Assembly (NCBI GenBank): GCA_964636355.1
Contig: CAZWRG010000002.1
Coordinates: 32,746 to 96,745 of the forward strand
Source of the DNA: an uncultured Candidatus Saccharibacteria bacterium
Lineage (GTDB): Bacteria; Patescibacteriota; Saccharimonadia; Saccharimonadales; JAGQNK01
Direction: 5' to 3'
DNA length: 64,000 nucleotides
Shown here: positions 1 through 52,363 of the stretch, one piece after another
Position numbering within the stretch: position 1 is the stretch's first letter
How the letters are laid out: every line of letters starts with the position of its first letter
Made by a program: the position numbers and the translations under genes
Notes under the pieces: generated by a model
Told to the model about the DNA's origin: nothing
Seen by the model: only the letters and a program-made list of their open reading frames with translations
Databases searched by the model: none

Positions 1-55
1 AAAAGTCGTCGCCGGCGAAACCACCCTCGAAGAAGTCTATCGGGTGATCGGCTAG
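1..55 (+). CDS. 3' end of a CDS entering from upstream; tail resembles GspE/PilB-type secretion/pilus ATPase C-terminus
   Basis: Frame 2 reads ...KVVAGETTLEEVYRVIG-stop (stop 53-55). The G-x-T-[TS]-LEEV-x-RV tail is typical of GspE/PilB ATPases. Only 18 codons are visible. Confidence 0.3.
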   Translation, partial: KVVAGETTLEEVYRVIG

Positions 56-103: not shown

Positions 104-369
104 ATGAGCCGGGAATGGATGATTCAAGCTTATTGTCGAGACGATACAAAGCAGTCAAATATGCTTGATCTATTCTTTCCGGAATCTTTTGAGAGAGAAG
201 AAGACAGGCTTCAGCGTGAGTCTTTGGCTAAAGCGATATGCGCGCCCAATGTGTGGTAAGAACTGAATGCTTGAACTACGCTCTTACTTATGAACAGCAG
301 AGTGATGGGGTGTGGGGCGGTCTAAACAAAGAAGAAAGAGGCCGGCTCATTGACTCCAAGGCTTCCTAA
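104..369 (+). pseudogene. WhiB-like (Wbl) Fe-S transcription factor interrupted by a frameshift at ~248-249
   Basis: Frame 2 (104-259) reads MSREWMIQAYCRDD..MLDLFFPES..AKAICAPNVW-stop. Frame 1 (250-369) reads CVVRTECLNYALTYEQQSDGVWGGLNKEERGRL... Joined, they give C-x34-C-x2-C-x5-C plus the GVWGG turn and a basic tail. Two extra nt (aa, 248-249) split the CxxC. Confidence 0.7.
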
Positions 370-371
370 TC

Positions 372-1505
372 TTAATTTATAACTTTTGCGATTTCGGGGA
401 CTAACCGATGGTCTAGGTTGTTGGGGATTATCATGTCTGGAGTTGGATTTTCAACGAGTTCGGCAATCACTTCGGCGGCGGCAATTTTATGATCATCAGT
501 GATTTTTGAGACCTGATTATCAAGTGCTCCCCGGAAAATTCCAGGAAAAGCCAGGGAGTTATTGACTTGGTTAGGAAAATCGCTGCGGCCGGTGGCCATA
601 ACTGCAACGCCGGCAGCTTTGGCGTCTTCGGGCATAATTTCGGGAACGGGATTGGCCATGGCGAAGATAATCGGATCCGGCGCCATCGACTTAACCATAT
701 CAGCCGACAGTAAGCCAGCCTTTGAGACTCCAATGAAAATATCGGCATCTCTAAGTGCGTCCTCCAAGCTGCCGCTAACATTATCGTGATTTGTAAACTC
801 TAAAAGTCTTCTCTTTTCACTATTTAGGTCTTCTCGATTAGCGCTGATGATTCCTTTGCTATCGACGGCCAAAATCTCAGGCTCAGCATAGAGATTTAGA
901 AGTTTCATAATTGCTGTTCCGGCAGCTCCAGCTCCAACACAAACAATTCGACAGTCTTTGAGGTTGCGCCCAGTTACTTTCATGGCATTTATCAAACCAG
1001 CCAATACAACCACAGCTGTGCCGTGTTGGTCATCGTGAAACACCGGAATATTTAGTTCAGACTTAAGCCGTTCTTCTACTTCAAAACAAATTGGCGCGGC
1101 AATATCCTCTAAATTAATTCCGCCAAAGCTTGGAGCTATGGCCTTAACGGCAGCAACGATTTCATCGGCTGAATGAACATCTAAAATGATCGGAACTGCA
1201 TCAATTCCAGCAAAATGCTTAAACAGCATGGCCTTGCCCTCCATGACCGGCAGCGCGCCATAAGGTCCAATATTTCCCAGTCCCAGAACTGCTGAACCGT
1301 CCGAAACAACTGCTACAGAGTTGTTGAGCCAAGTATAGTCACGGGCTTGGTCTGGGTTTTCGGCCACAAAGCTAGAAACCGCGCCCACTCCAGGCGTGTA
1401 ATAAATGCTGAGCTTTTCCTGAGTATCAAGTTTATCTTTTAGCTCAATACTTAACTTTCCACCGAGTTGTTTGTGTTTGTCTAGAGCGATTTTCGTATAA
1501 TCCAT
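372..1505 (-). CDS. NAD(P)-dependent malic enzyme (short ~377 aa form)
   Basis: Motifs YTPGVG, GLGNIGPYGALPVMEGKA, FGGINLEDI, FHDDQHGTA and VGAGAAGTA are present. The ORF-track start (1550) was trimmed to the ATG at 1505 (MDYTKIALDKH...). Confidence 0.9.
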   Translation of the reverse strand: MDYTKIALDKHKQLGGKLSIELKDKLDTQEKLSIYYTPGVGAVSSFVAENPDQARDYTWLNNSVAVVSDGSAVLGLGNIGPYGALPVMEGKAMLFKHFAGIDAVPIILDVHSADEIVAAVKAIAPSFGGINLEDIAAPICFEVEERLKSELNIPVFHDDQHGTAVVVLAGLINAMKVTGRNLKDCRIVCVGAGAAGTAIMKLLNLYAEPEILAVDSKGIISANREDLNSEKRRLLEFTNHDNVSGSLEDALRDADIFIGVSKAGLLSADMVKSMAPDPIIFAMANPVPEIMPEDAKAAGVAVMATGRSDFPNQVNNSLAFPGIFRGALDNQVSKITDDHKIAAAEVIAELVENPTPDMIIPNNLDHRLVPEIAKVIN

Positions 1506-2715: not shown

Positions 2716-3279
2716 ATGAGTTTCTATATTTTGATCTCGTTGCTTCCACCTTTATTTCTTAATATTTGGCATATAATTTTAGTGACAAGGCCGCGAACGA
2801 GTCCTAGGCCATTGACCATCAGTGAACATGCTTCAGAGAGTCAAGCCACATTATTGGCTCATCGCATATTGCATTCGCTGCCAATCATTATGTTAACGCC
2901 CTTTATTGTATGGTTTTTAATCCCAAAAGGGCATATCTATGCTGCAGTGCTGCTTTTTAGTGGTTCATTTTTCGACTCAATAGAGGTTTTAACGCTGAAT
3001 AAGCATTCGGCAGAACTTGATGGCCCTATAAATCTACATAAAGTAACTGCATGGATAATGGCTCTAAGCTACATGGGCTACATGCTTGCAATTAGCAGGG
3101 TAGCGGAAATTAATCCATATATTTATGGTCTTTTCTTTTTGGCATGTGTGCTGCTCATGGTTTTTGCGATTAAGGGTATGTTCAAAGCCTATTTTCTCTT
3201 TATGCAGACTATATTTTTTGTTTTAATGTCCCTTGTAATATTGATGGCCCACATTGCTTTATTGGTAAAAAGTGCATGA
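2716..3279 (+). CDS. hypothetical polytopic membrane protein
   Basis: 187 aa with several long hydrophobic segments and no recognised motif. Tightly packed between rnhB and the yraN-like gene. Confidence 0.5.
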   Translation: MSFYILISLLPPLFLNIWHIILVTRPRTSPRPLTISEHASESQATLLAHRILHSLPIIMLTPFIVWFLIPKGHIYAAVLLFSGSFFDSIEVLTLNKHSAELDGPINLHKVTAWIMALSYMGYMLAISRVAEINPYIYGLFFLACVLLMVFAIKGMFKAYFLFMQTIFFVLMSLVILMAHIALLVKSA

Positions 3280-6457: not shown

Positions 6458-7642
6458 ATGGATTTAGATGTAAAACAATTGGCCCTGGCTGTCAAAGCAA
6501 TCGCTGAGGAAAAGAATCTGCCAGCTGATACTGTGCAAGAAGTCGTTGAGCAGGCGCTGGCGGCTGCCTATAAGCGTGATTATGGCGACCGTGAACAGGA
6601 AGTGCGAATCAGCATGAATGTTCATAGCGGTGAGGTTGATGCTTATGTGACCAAAGAAGTCGTTGAGCGGGTTGGTGATGAACACTTTGAAATCAGCTTA
6701 AAAGACGCTCAGGTTATGAAAAAGAACGCCAAAGTTGGTGATGAAATTGAAGTTCACCAAAAAGTAGAAAACTTTGGACGTGTCGCTGCTCAAACTGCCA
6801 AGCAGGTTGTACTTCAAAGACTGCGAGAGGCGGAGCGTGAGATCATCGTTGATGAGTACGAGGACAAAATCGGCACGGTTATCAACGGTATTGTTGGTCG
6901 GGTAGAGGGCCGAATTGTACGAGTTGACCTCGGTAAAGCTCAGGGAATTATGCCGATGAGCGAACAGATTCAAGGTGAAAGATATTATCCTGGGCAGCGC
7001 CTAAAAGTCTACTTAAAAGATGTTGAACGAGGCATGCGAGGCCCGCAGTTGGTGGTGTCCAGGGGCAATACTGAATTCGTGGAGTGGCTATTTAGGGCCG
7101 AAGTTCCGGAGATGGAAACTGGCGCCGTAGAAATTAGTGGTATTTCGCGTGAAGCTGGCGTGCGCAGCAAGATTGCAGTTCGCAGCACAGTTCAAGGCGT
7201 GGATCCGGTTGGTACATTTGTGGGCGGTCACGGCACTCGCGTAAATGCGGTGATGAGTGAAATTGGCGAACAGGAAAAGATTGACATTGTAGTTTGGGAC
7301 GAAGATCCAAAAACTTACATCGTTAACGCCTTAAGTCCAACCAAAGTTGATAAGGTGGAGCTTGATGAGGCTAATAAAAAAGCTAAAGTTACTGTTCCCG
7401 AGGATCAGCTAAGTATTGCCATTGGTAAGGGCGGTCAAAATGTTCGACTGGCTAGCAAGCTGACCGGATATGAGATCGATATCAACTCGTCACAATCTGA
7501 TCAGCCGCTGGATGATAAAGCTCCAGCTGATGTTAAGCCAGCTAAACCAGCTGGTCCACAACCACTTGCCGGTCCAAAGCTTAAGAAAAAAGAACAACTC
7601 GAAAGCAGCCTACTGGAAGCTATCGAAGAACACGGCGAATAG
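6458..7642 (+). CDS. nusA: transcription termination/antitermination factor NusA
   Basis: N-terminal domain plus S1 and KH regions recognisable (GRVAAQTAKQVVLQRLREAERE, QLSIAIGKGGQNVRLASKLTGYEIDI). SD aaggag lies upstream. Confidence 0.9.
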   Translation: MDLDVKQLALAVKAIAEEKNLPADTVQEVVEQALAAAYKRDYGDREQEVRISMNVHSGEVDAYVTKEVVERVGDEHFEISLKDAQVMKKNAKVGDEIEVHQKVENFGRVAAQTAKQVVLQRLREAEREIIVDEYEDKIGTVINGIVGRVEGRIVRVDLGKAQGIMPMSEQIQGERYYPGQRLKVYLKDVERGMRGPQLVVSRGNTEFVEWLFRAEVPEMETGAVEISGISREAGVRSKIAVRSTVQGVDPVGTFVGGHGTRVNAVMSEIGEQEKIDIVVWDEDPKTYIVNALSPTKVDKVELDEANKKAKVTVPEDQLSIAIGKGGQNVRLASKLTGYEIDINSSQSDQPLDDKAPADVKPAKPAGPQPLAGPKLKKKEQLESSLLEAIEEHGE

Positions 7643-11505: not shown

Positions 11506-12855
11506 ATGGCTAAAAAACCTTCGGTTAAATATGTCTGCAGTAACTGCGGCGCGGAAAGTAATTCCTGGAGCGGCCGTTGCTATAATTGCGGCGAATGGAA
11601 CACGCTTGAAGAGCAGCTTTCATCAGTAGTAATTAATAATGTAAAATCGGCGGGTCGAACCTTGCAGCCGCAATCGGTCAGCAAATCAATATCCAAAGAT
11701 CATCATCGTCTGCCAATTGGTATTAGCGAAGTCGATAACGTTTTAGGCGGCGGAATTGTCGCCGGCAGTGTCAATTTGATTGCTGGACAGCCGGGAATTG
11801 GTAAAAGTACTTTGTTGCTGCAAATGGCTTACGAGCTTAGTAAGTCACAACCAGTGCTGTATGTTAGTGCTGAAGAATCGGCTCACCAGATCGGCATTCG
11901 AGCAGAGCGACTTGGCACAAACAGTGATAAGCTTCAGTTAGTTACCAGCACCAGCGCTGATGATATTGCCTCAACGATTGCGGCTGGTGATTATAAATTA
12001 GTTGTAGTTGATTCAATCCAGACGATTTCTTGCGAATCAATTGCCTCAGCAGCCGGCAACGTTAGCCAAATAACTAACAGCACACAGCTATTGACGGCAG
12101 CCGCCAAGCAATCTGACACAGCAATTATAATTGTTGGCCACGTCACTAAAGAAGGCTCAATTGCTGGACCGAAGGTTTTAGAGCATGTGGTCGATGTGGT
12201 ACTTCAACTAGAAGGCGATCGCTACGGCGGCTTCAAAATTTTAAGAGCCGTGAAAAACCGCTATGGATCAACCAACGAAGCCGGAATTTTTGAAATGGTC
12301 GACAATGGTCTAAAGCCGGTAGCCAATCCTTCAGCCGCGCTGCTGGCAGAGCGTAAAATCACTGACGGCTCGATAGTTTTAGCCACACTGGAGGGCACGC
12401 GGCCGCTGCTGGTTGAAGTTCAAGCCCTAGTTAACAAGACAAGCTACGGCTATCCAAAAAGAGCGGCCAGCGGAATTGATCTTAATCGAGTAAATCTTTT
12501 GGTGGCCATGCTGGAGCGTCGGACCAAGTTAAACCTAGCCGATAAAGACGTTTACATAAACATCGTTGGTGGAATTAAACTTACCGAACCGGCAGCCGAT
12601 TTAGCGGTGGCCATGGCGATTGCTTCAGCTACCAAAGGCCTGCAGCTCAAACAAAACGCGGTGGTGTTTGGTGAGCTTGGTTTGGCTGGCGAGGTTCGTC
12701 ATGTGCCGTTTTTGGATAAACGGGTTGCTGAGGCCAAGAAGCTGGGCTTTGAGCTGGCAATTGGACCGGAGATTCGCTCTGGTAAAAAACCAGCCAAATA
12801 TCACGGCGTAAGTGATGTTAGATCAGCTCTAAATACATTTTTAGAGAAAAGTTAA
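11506..12855 (+). CDS. radA: DNA repair protein RadA/Sms
   Basis: Zinc finger CSNCGAESNSWSGRCYNCGEWNT, Walker A GQPGIGKST, KNRYG motif and a Lon-like C-terminal domain. Confidence 0.9.
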   Translation: MAKKPSVKYVCSNCGAESNSWSGRCYNCGEWNTLEEQLSSVVINNVKSAGRTLQPQSVSKSISKDHHRLPIGISEVDNVLGGGIVAGSVNLIAGQPGIGKSTLLLQMAYELSKSQPVLYVSAEESAHQIGIRAERLGTNSDKLQLVTSTSADDIASTIAAGDYKLVVVDSIQTISCESIASAAGNVSQITNSTQLLTAAAKQSDTAIIIVGHVTKEGSIAGPKVLEHVVDVVLQLEGDRYGGFKILRAVKNRYGSTNEAGIFEMVDNGLKPVANPSAALLAERKITDGSIVLATLEGTRPLLVEVQALVNKTSYGYPKRAASGIDLNRVNLLVAMLERRTKLNLADKDVYINIVGGIKLTEPAADLAVAMAIASATKGLQLKQNAVVFGELGLAGEVRHVPFLDKRVAEAKKLGFELAIGPEIRSGKKPAKYHGVSDVRSALNTFLEKS

Positions 12856-12888
12856 TATAATTTCTAGGTAATTACGAGTTAAGACTGA

Positions 12889-15867
12889 TTAGTTAACAGT
12901 AAAGGTTGATTCGTTGCCTCTAGAATCTTCGGCTCGAATTGTGTCGCCAGAGGCTATTGGTGGATTTGGACTACATGAACCTTTGGACGCCGCCTCGGAG
13001 CATATTTGATTGCCGCCGTTAAAGATACGGACTATTCCATTTCCGCCGCTCCAGGATATATCACCGCCCGATGAGGCGCCGGTAATTTCTAGGCCTGAGT
13101 CATTAGAAGCTTTGAATGGGAAAGTGCCGCTGTTGGTGTTGTCATATAGCACGCTGTCGACAATTGTAGCGCTAATTCGTTTAGTGCCTGATGACGTGGC
13201 TTTATAGTTGAATCTAACATTGCCGCTGCCACTGACTTTCGATGAGTGGACTTCTTTGCCGTCGATTTTGACCGTTAAAGTGCCAGGGAAGCGGTCACTG
13301 GAAAGCGGGTGGGTTCCTTGAGTCACATCAATGGTGATTTGGTAGTTACCGTTGCCCAGATCCCGCGCACTAGCCGGTCTGGCGGATGGTTTAACATCGT
13401 CACACTTATGAACGTCATCTTTTTCTTCGGTATTAATCGCCCCACGATTTCCTTCTACGAATTGGTCGGCCGAAAAGCTGTTGGCGTCTCCGCCGGTGAC
13501 TTCTTTTTTAGCCCGCGGCGGGGTACAGTCGGTAGCTAGCTTGTTAGAGACAATATCAATAGTTTGCTTTTTATTACGGATATTATTTTTCTTAAACCAA
13601 GACGGGAAAAGATCGGTTGATGGGCTTGGCTCCACTGATCCAACTCCAACATGGGAGCGCACAACAAAGGCCGGCAAGGTTTGAATTCCTTTTGGTTTTG
13701 GCCAGTCTTCGGCTTTTTGATTGGTGTGGGCCTCTTGCATCCAGCCCTGCCAGATTGGCTGAGTCATGTTTTCCATGAAGCCGGACATTTCTACTCGCCG
13801 GTTGTGGTAGCCAACCCAAACACCAGCGGCGTACTTGCTGGAGTATCCCATCATCCAACCGTCTTTTGAATCGTTGGTGGTACCGGTTTTAACTGCGAAT
13901 TTCCACTCGCCTTGACCGCCGTTAAAGCGGTGTGGTTTGCGGGACAGGTAGCTGGCCCGCGGATCACTCAACATATCAGAAATAATGTAGGCGGTATCTT
14001 CTCTAATGGCTTGTTCGCCTTTTTGTTCTTCCCATTCGGTAACTGTTTTGCCGCCGGCATCAACAATTTTTAGAATGTAAGTCTGAGGGATTAATTTGCC
14101 ATTACGAGCAAATGTACCAAAAGCGTGGACATGTTCATCCATCTTTAGATAAGCACCGTCACCAATCGCTGAAGAAGCATAACACTGGCCCTCATTGGTT
14201 AATTCTTCATCTTCGTAACAGCGGTAGCCGCTCTTGAGGCCCATGCTGTCAGCTACGGCGATGGTTTCATCCACGCCAACTGTGAGCATAGCCTTAACCG
14301 CTGGGATGTTCCTGGATCCGCCTAAGGCATATCGGAGTGTTAAGGGGCCGGGATATCGGAAGTCATAGTTCCAAAGACAGTTGCCAGCTGGTGGTCGGGC
14401 CTTGTTGGTGCAGGGGTAGCCTGGAATTGGGCCCTGAGTATCATAAAGAACCGAACCAGCGCCAATGTTTTCTGATTTTTCTATCAAAGCGGCGTAGTCA
14501 TAGGGCTTGAAACTGGAGCCCGGCGGTAATCGGTAGCGGGCGTAGTTGTTTTGGCCATATTCTTCGTTGGTGAAGTCGGTTCCGCCCACCAAAGATACAA
14601 TTTGACCGGTTTTGACATCTTCAGCTACAAAAGCCGCCACATTACCGCCTTGGGCGCGAATCTGAGCGGCGCCTTCGTTAACTTTGCGTTCAGCAACTCT
14701 TTGAAGATCCAAATCCAAAGTTGTAGTAACTTTCCAGCCACCACGTTGTACTGTTTCGCCACCAAACCTTTCCTCTAATGATTCCTTGGCAGTTAGCACA
14801 AACCAAGGGGCGGTAATACCGGTGTATTTAGGCTTCGGTTCCTTTACTTTAGCCAAGATCTTTACCTGCTTGGCTTCATCGCGGTCTTCGGCAGAAATCA
14901 TGCCCTGGCGTTCCATTTCATCAAGAATATAGTGCATTCGCCCAATTAAGGCCTCAGGATTATAGCTAGAGCCGTAAGGTGAATAATAAGATGGCGATTG
15001 CGGCATGGCTGCCAAGAACGCCGCTTCATCCAGGGTGATATTCTTGGCGGACTTTTGGAAGTAATCACGAGCAGCCGTTTCGACACCGTATTGGACGTTG
15101 CCATATGGAGCGGTGTTTAAATAGCCAGTCAGGATTTCTTCTTTTGAATAGCTTCTTTCCAGCTCAACAGACAAAATTAATTCTTTTAATTTACGGGTGT
15201 AGGTTTGTTCTTTTCCAACGCCGCTTTGAGTTAAGCGCACTAATTGCTGGGTGATGGTTGAACCACCTTGAGTGCTGCCGCCTGTGACGTTATTAAGGGC
15301 CGCTCTGGTGATGCCCCTAACGTCAAAGCCGCCGTGATTGAAAAAGTCTTTGTCTTCGATGGCAATTGTTGCCTGTCGCAGATAATCGGCCATTTCTGTG
15401 CTTTCTACCGGAACTCGTTTAACAGCGTCGAAATCCTCCCAAAGCAGGTGTTTACCAGTGCGATCATAATATCTAATGCTGCCGCCAATGTTATTTCCGG
15501 AAATATCTTTAAGGTTAGGCAGGTCTTTTCGGAAATATGCAAATAGGCCAACTAACAGTAAAAATCCGGCGATAATACCAATTCCGGTAATTTTAAGCGC
15601 CATGATTCCGCCCTCGCGGCTAAACCAATAGGCGTACATTCGCTTAGGATGCAGCCGGTAAAAAAATCTTTTGACGCGACTTTTTGGCATTCCAGCCAAT
15701 CGCTTAGCCCGAGCTTTAGCAAAAGCGTCTCGGCGAGCCCTGATTTTATCTGTCAGGCTGCGATTAATCTTGATGGTTTGTCCGCTTTTGGTCACAAAAG
15801 TGTTTTTGCTTTTACGACCCACACCACGAGCACTGCGGCTAACTTTCCGTTTATTCTTGCTACTCAT
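12889..15867 (-). CDS. class A penicillin-binding protein (glycosyltransferase + transpeptidase) with long C-terminal extension
   Basis: GT51 motifs (AIEDKDFFNHGG, GGSTITQQL), SxxK-type PGSSFKP, KTGTT, an N-terminal TM helix and a ~250 aa Ser/Gly/Thr-rich beta-type tail. Confidence 0.9.
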   Translation of the reverse strand: MSSKNKRKVSRSARGVGRKSKNTFVTKSGQTIKINRSLTDKIRARRDAFAKARAKRLAGMPKSRVKRFFYRLHPKRMYAYWFSREGGIMALKITGIGIIAGFLLLVGLFAYFRKDLPNLKDISGNNIGGSIRYYDRTGKHLLWEDFDAVKRVPVESTEMADYLRQATIAIEDKDFFNHGGFDVRGITRAALNNVTGGSTQGGSTITQQLVRLTQSGVGKEQTYTRKLKELILSVELERSYSKEEILTGYLNTAPYGNVQYGVETAARDYFQKSAKNITLDEAAFLAAMPQSPSYYSPYGSSYNPEALIGRMHYILDEMERQGMISAEDRDEAKQVKILAKVKEPKPKYTGITAPWFVLTAKESLEERFGGETVQRGGWKVTTTLDLDLQRVAERKVNEGAAQIRAQGGNVAAFVAEDVKTGQIVSLVGGTDFTNEEYGQNNYARYRLPPGSSFKPYDYAALIEKSENIGAGSVLYDTQGPIPGYPCTNKARPPAGNCLWNYDFRYPGPLTLRYALGGSRNIPAVKAMLTVGVDETIAVADSMGLKSGYRCYEDEELTNEGQCYASSAIGDGAYLKMDEHVHAFGTFARNGKLIPQTYILKIVDAGGKTVTEWEEQKGEQAIREDTAYIISDMLSDPRASYLSRKPHRFNGGQGEWKFAVKTGTTNDSKDGWMMGYSSKYAAGVWVGYHNRRVEMSGFMENMTQPIWQGWMQEAHTNQKAEDWPKPKGIQTLPAFVVRSHVGVGSVEPSPSTDLFPSWFKKNNIRNKKQTIDIVSNKLATDCTPPRAKKEVTGGDANSFSADQFVEGNRGAINTEEKDDVHKCDDVKPSARPASARDLGNGNYQITIDVTQGTHPLSSDRFPGTLTVKIDGKEVHSSKVSGSGNVRFNYKATSSGTKRISATIVDSVLYDNTNSGTFPFKASNDSGLEITGASSGGDISWSGGNGIVRIFNGGNQICSEAASKGSCSPNPPIASGDTIRAEDSRGNESTFTVN

Positions 15868-51811: not shown

Positions 51812-52363
51812 ATGGCTGAACAAAGAAGAAACAGGCAGCAAGCACCGACAGAAGAAAAACAGTTCGACGAACGAGTGGTTCATATTGACCGCGTCGCCCG
51901 TGTTGTTAAGGGTGGTCGACGATTTAGGTTCCGCGCCCTAGTGGTACTTGGTGATCACAAAGGCAAGGTTGGAATTGGTATTTCAAAGGGTGCTGACGTA
52001 ACAGCAGCCGTCGCCAAGGCAGTTGATGTTGCCAAGAAAAACATGGTATCGATTCATCTTTATAACGGCACAATTCCACATGAAGCCGAAGCTAAAGTAA
52101 GCGGTGCTCGAATCTTAATCAAGCCAGCAGCGCCAGGTACCGGTTTGATTGCTGGTGGTGTGGTACGAACAGTTCTTGAAGTAGCTGGCGTCAACAATGC
52201 GCTTTCAAAATCACTCGGCTCAACTAATAAAATTAATATTGCTTACGCCACTTTAGAGGCCTTGCAATCAGTCGTGCCGGCTGCCGAATGGCTGACAGTT
52301 AAAAGTAAAAAGTCTCAAGAATCAGCCACCAAAGCTAAGAAAGCAGCTGAAGGAGCAAAATAA
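51812..52363 (+). CDS. rpsE: 30S ribosomal protein S5
   Basis: VVHIDRVARVVKGGRRFRFRALVVLGD and PAAPGTGLIAGG. Confidence 0.96.
   Translation: MAEQRRNRQQAPTEEKQFDERVVHIDRVARVVKGGRRFRFRALVVLGDHKGKVGIGISKGADVTAAVAKAVDVAKKNMVSIHLYNGTIPHEAEAKVSGARILIKPAAPGTGLIAGGVVRTVLEVAGVNNALSKSLGSTNKINIAYATLEALQSVVPAAEWLTVKSKKSQESATKAKKAAEGAK

Follow-up and report, generated by a model that had tools for sequence, protein, structure and literature searches.

Results

A WhiB-like gene split between two reading frames

The window, by which we mean the whole 64,000-nucleotide stretch of DNA that was analysed, begins within an ATPase gene, which is followed by a small WhiB-like (Wbl) gene in two pieces and by a convergent malic enzyme gene. 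The features of this locus are as follows:

1-55, + strand: 3' end of a PilB/GspE-type (T2SSE) ATPase gene, stop codon TAG at 53-55; identical ends in contigs L002 and L001
56-103, + strand: AT-rich spacer of 48 nt, with a Shine-Dalgarno-like AAGG at 93-96, 7 nt 5' of the ATG at 104
104-259, + strand: N-terminal Wbl piece, 51 codons with a premature TAA at 257-259; carries Cys11, Cys46, Trp5 and Phe24-Phe25; Pfam Whib positions 1-32
241-243, + strand: lesion, T to CGC (net +2), placed by alignments with L001, L002 and L018; between the Cys46 and Cys49 codons
250-369, + strand: C-terminal Wbl piece in the -1 frame, with Cys49, Cys55, the GVWGG turn and the stop codon TAA at 367-369; Pfam Whib positions 32-65
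372-1550, - strand: convergent malic enzyme gene (NCBIfam NADP-dependent malic enzyme, 1.5e-103), the right edge of the slot

The Wbl gene appears on the + strand as two overlapping open reading frames, 104-259 and 238-369, the latter in the -1 frame. From the ATG at 104 to the TAA at 257-259 the first encodes a product of 51 aa, MSREWMIQAYCRDDTKQSNMLDLFFPESFEREEDRLQRESLAKAICAPNVW, and the second, given a mechanical start at ATG 238, reads MRAQCVVRTECLNYALTYEQQSDGVWGGLNKEERGRLIDSKAS. When compared with the Pfam Whib model PF02467, for which the score cut-off is 23.6 bits, the first piece alone matches model positions 1-32 (E 9e-3) and the second positions 32-65 (E 1.6e-9), while the joined protein of 87 aa covers positions 1-65 of 65 with 65.5 bits (E 6.5e-18), a match far beyond chance. 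A first-pass annotation of this DNA had proposed that the two frame pieces together reconstruct a complete Wbl protein, and both the full-length domain match and the intact state of the orthologues described below bear this out. The signature elements that it listed are likewise all found in the repaired protein, namely the cysteine arrangement C-x34-C-x2-C-x5-C, DLFFPE (within LDLFFPE) and GVWGG, the last corresponding to the Gly-rich beta-turn G[V/I]WGG. Its description of a basic tail fared less well, as the segment after GGLN, KEERGRLIDSKAS, is barely basic (4 basic residues against 3 acidic ones), and the Wbl C-terminus contains neither a basic DNA-binding tail nor an AT-hook (no RGRP). 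A basic C-terminal tail or AT-hook is a trait of several Wbl subclasses, not of all of them.

Since the frame that encodes Cys11 and Cys46 is not that of Cys49 and Cys55, the window copy does not place the four-cysteine ligand set in one chain, and it is therefore a Wbl pseudogene rather than a working member of the family. No Wbl subfamily model of NCBIfam matched the protein, and a tblastn search of the 64-kb window found no second Wbl copy. The spacer at 56-103 differs from that of L001 by one substitution. No promoter upstream of the Wbl gene passed a consensus scan of the + strand, nor was a terminator-like site found between the Wbl and malic enzyme genes.

Affiliation of the host

The surroundings had been judged Saccharibacteria-like in the first-pass annotation, and two regions of the window agree with this. 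For the NusA encoded at 6458-7642 there are hundreds of relatives (78-92% identity), on contigs of up to about 1 Mb, and those that carry names include 'Candidatus Saccharibacteria bacterium' and 'Patescibacteria group bacterium' at 80%. Further along, the S5 gene (51812-52363) abuts the L15 gene (52363-52833) with no L30 gene between them, and a missing L30 at this position is a known CPR trait. One NusA from NCBI (P0285, on a 294-kb contig), which is 82% identical to that of the window, carries the name 'Candidatus Limnocylindria bacterium' (Chloroflexota). As its fellow close relatives with names are assigned to Saccharibacteria or Patescibacteria, the MAG has probably been mislabelled or mis-binned.

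Intact orthologues in the same chromosomal slot

Orthologues were sought with a word-indexed search and then, exhaustively, with HMMER among 1.84 billion representative proteins. The former returned P0001, an intact protein of 87 aa that is 98% identical to the repaired window protein. Its contig, L001 (Logan run SRR34148156), carries the genes in the order ATPase, Wbl, malic enzyme (- strand), L19 and RNase HII, and aligns with the window at 98.04% DNA identity over 3313 nt (63 mismatches). The exhaustive search gave 9270 Wbl matches, among which there was one other close relative, P0014 (88 aa, intact, 58% identity, E 1.3e-24), with the following match at 4e-15. P0014 is encoded on contig L018 (run SRR29564175), likewise in a slot between a PilB-like ATPase gene and a malic enzyme gene, and this contig is 70% identical to the window DNA over 1262 nt. 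The upstream ATPase genes are partial in L002 (329 aa) and L001 (176 aa), with ends identical to window positions 1-55, and the malic enzyme gene is the neighbour of the Wbl gene in L001 and L018 as well. The stop codons of the Wbl and malic enzyme genes lie 2 nt apart in the window (366-374), and the two genes overlap by 4 nt in L018 (646-649).

Both P0001 and P0014 hold all four cysteines (C-Xn-C-X2-C-X5-C) within one polypeptide and retain the Gly-rich turn seen in the C-terminal piece of the window, which is 97.6% identical to residues 47-87 of P0001. The suggestion that related genomes be inspected for an intact CxxC is thus answered by C-A-Q-C in L001 and by the intact P0014 on L018. Comparison of the L001 and L018 genes yields a dN of 0.38, a saturated dS of about 2.2 and a dN/dS of 0.17, and the repaired window gene compared with L018 gives a dN/dS of 0.12, again with saturated dS; purifying selection has preserved the Wbl gene in at least two species. 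The base composition of the gene is native to the host genome, with a GC content of 45.9% compared with 44.9% for the window and a GC3 of 44% compared with 41-43% in the neighbouring genes.

Polarity and nature of the lesion

The surplus bases had initially been taken to be an 'aa' at 248-249. Alignment with the orthologues places the lesion instead at the third base of the Cys46 codon (241-243), where it creates a (GC)3 run at 240-245. The intact orthologues read TGT GCC CAA TGT (C-A-Q-C) and the window TGCGC GCC CAA TGT, such that ATATGCGCGCCCAATGT in the window corresponds to ATATGTGCCCAATGT in L001, which encodes I-C-A-Q-C. Because the Cys46 codon is TGT in both L001 and the outgroup L018, the state found in the window is derived.

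A lesion of this kind raises the question of whether the gene is broken at all, and the first-pass annotation had listed a sequencing error among its options. According to this account the gene is intact in the organism, and the surplus of two bases arose by mistake when a GC-rich run was sequenced or assembled. Several observations are compatible with it: the 98%-identical strain represented by L001 has an intact gene, selection has been purifying over the long term, and the window differs from L001 within the Wbl gene by just 2 synonymous and 2 non-synonymous changes, with no decay visible beyond the frameshift. However, the identical T to CGC change is present in L002, a separately built Logan contig (run SRR7082976) that agrees with the window over 295 nt at 100% identity, and the resulting 51-aa product, P0002, which is identical to the window fragment, is recorded in both NCBI and Logan. 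L002 and the NCBI record may derive from the same reads, which lessens the weight of this agreement. The lesion is also the sole gap in the 3313-nt alignment of the window with L001, and all of the neighbouring genes between 372 and 18055 (13/13) match the lengths of their orthologues, so the assembly is not indel-prone. Moreover, a gain of two bases together with a substitution is an atypical short-read error. We therefore regard an error as unlikely, and presume that the lesion belongs to the organism and not to the reads. As a separate observation, P0002 shares its 90%-identity cluster with P0004, a 369-aa 'ImpK' type VI secretion protein of unrelated sequence; this co-clustering is an artefact of the protein collection.

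Programmed recoding was also among the options initially considered. Here a -1/+2 ribosomal frameshift or transcriptional slippage would bypass the lesion and yield a full-length product, and the two frames do overlap by 22 nt (238-259), where a shift would join them. The overlap nevertheless lacks the expected signals: there is neither an X XXY YYZ heptamer nor a homopolymer run at 236-259, and the downstream RNA fold has a z of 0.46, with 134 of 200 shuffled sequences folding as well. A -1 shift would additionally produce C-x3-C rather than the invariant C-x2-C, the reading frame is uninterrupted in both orthologues (L001 and L018), and the lesion is derived. Recoding is accordingly the least credible of the accounts considered here, and we give it almost no weight.

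A further account would treat the (GC)n run as a reversible on/off switch (phase variation), or the two pieces as chains that co-assemble around one Fe-S cluster. The lesion does make or extend a dinucleotide repeat, on and off alleles are found side by side among strains of one species, and two cysteines fall on each piece. Known contingency loci, however, need more than three repeat units for high slippage; the intact allele, TGTGCC, is repeat-free and the window contains only (GC)3, with three units too few for slippage at the rates of such loci. As for split assembly, the ATG at 238 is not preceded by a Shine-Dalgarno-like motif, and a start at GTG 253 would lose Cys49. Either form of this account strikes us as very improbable. 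The frameshift is best read as ordinary strain-level pseudogenisation confined to the sequenced strain, in which Wbl function has presumably been lost.

Distribution of the gene among syntenic relatives

Syntenic contigs were fetched via NusA homologues that are 84-86% identical to the NusA of the window, giving L022/L023, L024/L025, L106 and L107. All four of these further syntenic lineages (4/4) are Wbl-less: the ATPase gene, which matches PF00437 (T2SSE) in L022-L025, L106 and L107, has the malic enzyme gene as its immediate downstream neighbour, with spacings that run from an overlap of 4 nt up to 123 nt. No Wbl remnants were detected by tblastn in the four lineages (best E 0.29).

The relationships among these lineages are less clear-cut. 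The malic enzyme of the window is 88% identical to that of the Wbl-less L022/L023 and 82.5% identical to that of the Wbl-bearing L018. In an NJ tree of malic enzyme plus the PilB C-terminus (402 columns), the Wbl-bearing clan receives a bootstrap value of 0.20, the value being 0.016 when malic enzyme is analysed by itself and 0.50 when the PilB C-terminus is. The closest NusA, P0278 (92%), is encoded on contig L109, which shares its sample of origin with L018 and whose DNA is 75-78% identical to the window, compared with 70-73% for the Wbl-less lineages. The GC contents of L109 (44.4%) and L018 (44.6%) are similar to that of the window, as opposed to 47-51% in the Wbl-less contigs. From the shared sample and GC, L018 and L109 would appear to come from one organism, and we lean towards the view that the Wbl-bearing lineages form one small clade. 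On the local species tree, a single gain is indistinguishable from ancestral presence followed by several losses.

Hence, it is necessary to consider that the gene may be ancestral to this Saccharibacteria group, inherited vertically and repeatedly lost, with the window showing a loss in progress and no transfer from Actinobacteria being needed. The malic enzyme identities and the clan support of 0.016-0.20 just described favour such a history, as do the native GC content and the deep split between the two orthologues. In addition, a Dormibacteria protein (P0186) places Wbl outside the strict Actinobacteria. Several lines of evidence argue otherwise. Among 1.84 billion proteins there is one close cluster (P0014, 1.3e-24, with the next at 4e-15), the gene is absent without remnant from all four further syntenic lineages, NusA identity and GC tie the window to the sample of L018, and the family is overwhelmingly actinomycetotal. 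We thus judge vertical descent with repeated loss to be improbable, about as much so as a sequencing error. The broad, vertically inherited non-actinobacterial clade that the first-pass annotation had set against its own proposal did not emerge either, since the appearance of vertical inheritance is limited to a narrow group of two species.

Other features of the slot and its surroundings were recorded as well. The one candidate for a mobile-element signature, a pair of AT-rich inverted repeats at 59-74/367-382, is weak (75% complementary) and has no counterpart at the Wbl gene boundaries in L018; we treated it as chance. A variable spot lies at 2716-3279, where the window has an ORF of 187 aa with no Pfam or NCBIfam match between the RNase HII gene and a YraN-family gene; the spot is empty in L022/L023 and holds unrelated short ORFs in L024, L025, L106 and L107. 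The 123-nt spacer at the Wbl slot of L106 (2460-2582) contains a near-perfect promoter (TTGACA, 18 nt, TATAAT) followed by a GAGAAG...CTTCTC hairpin and a T run. Rfam returned no match for this spacer (best E 0.75), and the element could be a small RNA or leader. On L024, the ClpB gene at 11995-14489 is represented by a pair of ORFs, of 121 aa and 711 aa, that overlap each other, which suggests a frameshift in that contig.

Relatives outside the Saccharibacteria

Beyond the two orthologues, the Wbl relatives that carry taxonomic labels have 41-52% identity and belong to Streptosporangiaceae, Actinomycetes, Microthrixaceae, Acidimicrobiales and one Dormibacteria MAG. A scan of representative genomes found Actinomycetota only (41-51% identity), and the best outside relative in a metagenome scan reached at most 52%. 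Nearly all of the 98 Wbl loci that were fetched lie on contigs of 60-74% GC. The next match of the word search after the orthologues, P0003 (42%), is phage-encoded beside capsid, tail and lysin genes (L015-L017). Among GenBank phages there were 362 Wbl matches, all below 60% with a maximum of 44.6% and nearly all from phages of Actinobacteria, and a scan of viral contigs found nothing closer to the window Wbl. By sequence, the affinity of the gene is to an actinomycetotal family.

The first-pass annotation had recommended a phylogeny against actinobacterial and phage Wbl proteins. In an NJ tree of 120 Wbl sequences the Saccharibacteria trio groups together (44% bootstrap), and no supported sister is found. 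No donor can be named, as the genome, metagenome, viral and phage searches end at about 52% or less and the NJ tree provides no supported sister.

A number of individual relatives deserve mention in their own right. Two low-GC contigs, L097 (32% GC) and L103 (36% GC), carry WhiB1-like genes. L097 was weighed as a further case of Wbl in CPR and rejected because of its gene order, prs-glmU-ispE-ksgA-tatD-rsmI, which we take to be that of a low-GC actinobacterium with a marine or freshwater look. On L108 (1374-1739), a Wbl protein of 121 aa whose composition, rich in N, K and I, is of a low-GC style and which is 47% identical to the query (P0017) adjoins a NUDIX gene and a gene for a 270-aa protein without a Pfam match; the host of L108 could be another non-actinobacterial Wbl carrier. 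Finally, P0163, from a JGI contig of 908 bp, is a 190-aa protein with two complete tandem Wbl domains, the halves of which are nearly identical; either the fusion is genuine or it arose during assembly.

Resemblance to characterised Wbl proteins

The solved structures that match best by sequence are WhiB1 (2.5e-10), WhiB3 and Streptomyces WhiB. An AlphaFold2 model of P0001 (pLDDT 85.9, pTM 0.73) was compared by Foldseek with sigma-bound WhiB1 and WhiB3, giving TM scores of 0.68-0.74 (query) and 0.80-0.85 (target) with a probability of 1.00. WhiB1 of Mycobacterium tuberculosis (PDB 6ONO, 5OAY), the top sequence match, is also the best fold match by E-value (4.2e-5; TM 0.68 query, 0.80 target). 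It shares the C-Xn-C-X2-C-X5-C ligands, the GVWGG turn and all four aromatic-patch residues, with W5, F24, F25 and W70 aligning with W3, F17, F18 and W60 of WhiB1 (phmmer, 6ONO). The likeness is nonetheless bounded: identity is only about 40%, the spacing between the first two cysteines is 34 in the window Wbl and 27 in WhiB1, and the window protein has an FEREEDR insert. The tails of WhiB1 and WhiB7 are strongly basic, whereas that of the window Wbl is not, and WhiB1 is encoded in an actinobacterium, the window Wbl in Saccharibacteria.

Closer in overall form is a group of Wbl proteins of about 85 aa with an 'FFPPxxFERK' pattern from Acidimicrobiales, Microthrixaceae and Dormibacteria (P0186, P0217, P0234), which are the closest labelled relatives at 47-52%. 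They resemble the window Wbl in overall length, in the FER..R.RE..AK.IC pattern between the first and second cysteines and in a short non-basic tail. The window Wbl differs from them in having four extra residues before LFFP and EQQSDGVWGG instead of REPHGIWGG; in addition, these proteins are encoded in high-GC genomes, and a sister relationship lacks bootstrap support. The Wbl proteins of actinobacteriophages (Thermobifida phage P1312 and the P0003 cluster, L015-L017) are comparable as small stand-alone mobile genes with 42-45% identity. In contrast, the gene of the window is surrounded by housekeeping genes whose chromosomal synteny is conserved, and no phage homologue reaches 60%.

In WhiB1, an aromatic patch (AP1-4) mediates binding to sigma-A region 4 around His516-Pro517 (PMC13013590). 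The aromatic-patch residues W5, F24, F25 and W70 are all kept in P0014. On the basis of sequence and modelled structure, and by analogy with WhiB1, the intact Saccharibacteria Wbl proteins would be expected to bind a [4Fe-4S] cluster and a sigma factor. In region 4.2, E. coli sigma-70 and M. tuberculosis SigA align, and the His-Pro pair lies in what we take to be an RHPSRS segment found also in E. coli sigma-70, which makes a non-actinobacterial primary sigma factor a plausible Wbl partner. The 64-kb window itself contains no sigma-70 gene, as judged by the region 2 motif.

Discussion

The current study describes a Wbl gene that occupies a conserved chromosomal slot in a narrow group of Saccharibacteria and is broken in the strain sequenced here. 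We consider it probable that the gene is an old horizontal acquisition which became domesticated and, in this strain, was recently disabled by the insertion of 2 bases. In such a scenario, a Wbl gene would have entered the Saccharibacteria lineage by horizontal transfer long ago, its source probably being an actinomycetotal cell or its phage, and would have inserted into the slot flanked by the genes for the PilB-like ATPase and the convergent malic enzyme. Subsequently, the gene would have been retained by purifying selection in at least two species. It is the native GC content, the 58% identity of the positional orthologue and the actinomycetotal affinity that together speak for an old transfer as opposed to a recent one from a present-day host, and both the direction and the age of the transfer are to be understood as probable. 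The first-pass annotation had suggested a host-derived acquisition that is now decaying. The acquisition and the broken gene are consistent with our results. A recent arrival or a gene already rotting is not, given the native GC content, the dN/dS of about 0.15 and the lack of any actinobacterial or phage relative above approximately 52%.

A synonymous T to C change in the Cys46 codon was probably followed by slippage of one GC unit, which would have cut off the first two cluster cysteines from the last two and left only a 51-aa fragment, presumably as a very recent, strain-specific pseudogene. With the cysteine pairs separated, a four-ligand cluster cannot form in a single chain.

Where the gene is intact, its product would be a monomeric [4Fe-4S] protein that grips region 4 of the primary sigma factor via the aromatic patch. 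It presumably functions as a regulator that senses redox state or NO while bound to sigma and that has no basic tail for DNA binding. One could also imagine, by analogy with phages, that the protein is aimed at the sigma factor of the host rather than that of the epibiont itself and, following delivery, reprograms the host, the aromatic patch being the one with which Wbl proteins of Actinobacteria and their phages hold sigma-A region 4. Under this reading, strains would drop Wbl on changing host; however, the adjacent PilB-like gene is found in the same synteny in the Wbl-less relatives as well. We hold host targeting to be highly unlikely and favour a domesticated regulator acting on the sigma factor of its own cell.

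Wbl proteins have been described as occurring in Actinobacteria and their phages only (PMC6282962, PMC13013590), and the first-pass annotation had stated essentially the same distribution. A host among the Saccharibacteria departs from this statement. The restriction is a stated distribution rather than a molecular criterion, and membership in the family is not barred by it. The literature that was searched contained no description of Wbl genes from Saccharibacteria or Patescibacteria. A selected and conserved Wbl in a narrow Saccharibacteria clade is therefore a taxonomic extension of a known family, to which the frameshift adds only that Wbl is dispensable in at least one strain.

The significance of the finding derives from the intact gene. 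Wbl has remained in a fixed Saccharibacteria slot for long enough that identity has fallen to 58%, and throughout this time all of the ligands and sigma-contact residues have been kept. This suggests that a regulator of the actinobacterial type, with an Fe-S cluster and bound to sigma, works in a CPR bacterium whose regulatory repertoire is tiny. Cultured Saccharibacteria grow on Actinobacteria, and the presence of the gene fits with gene flow between the two groups. It may further serve as a natural test of whether Wbl function depends upon an actinobacterial sigma-A.
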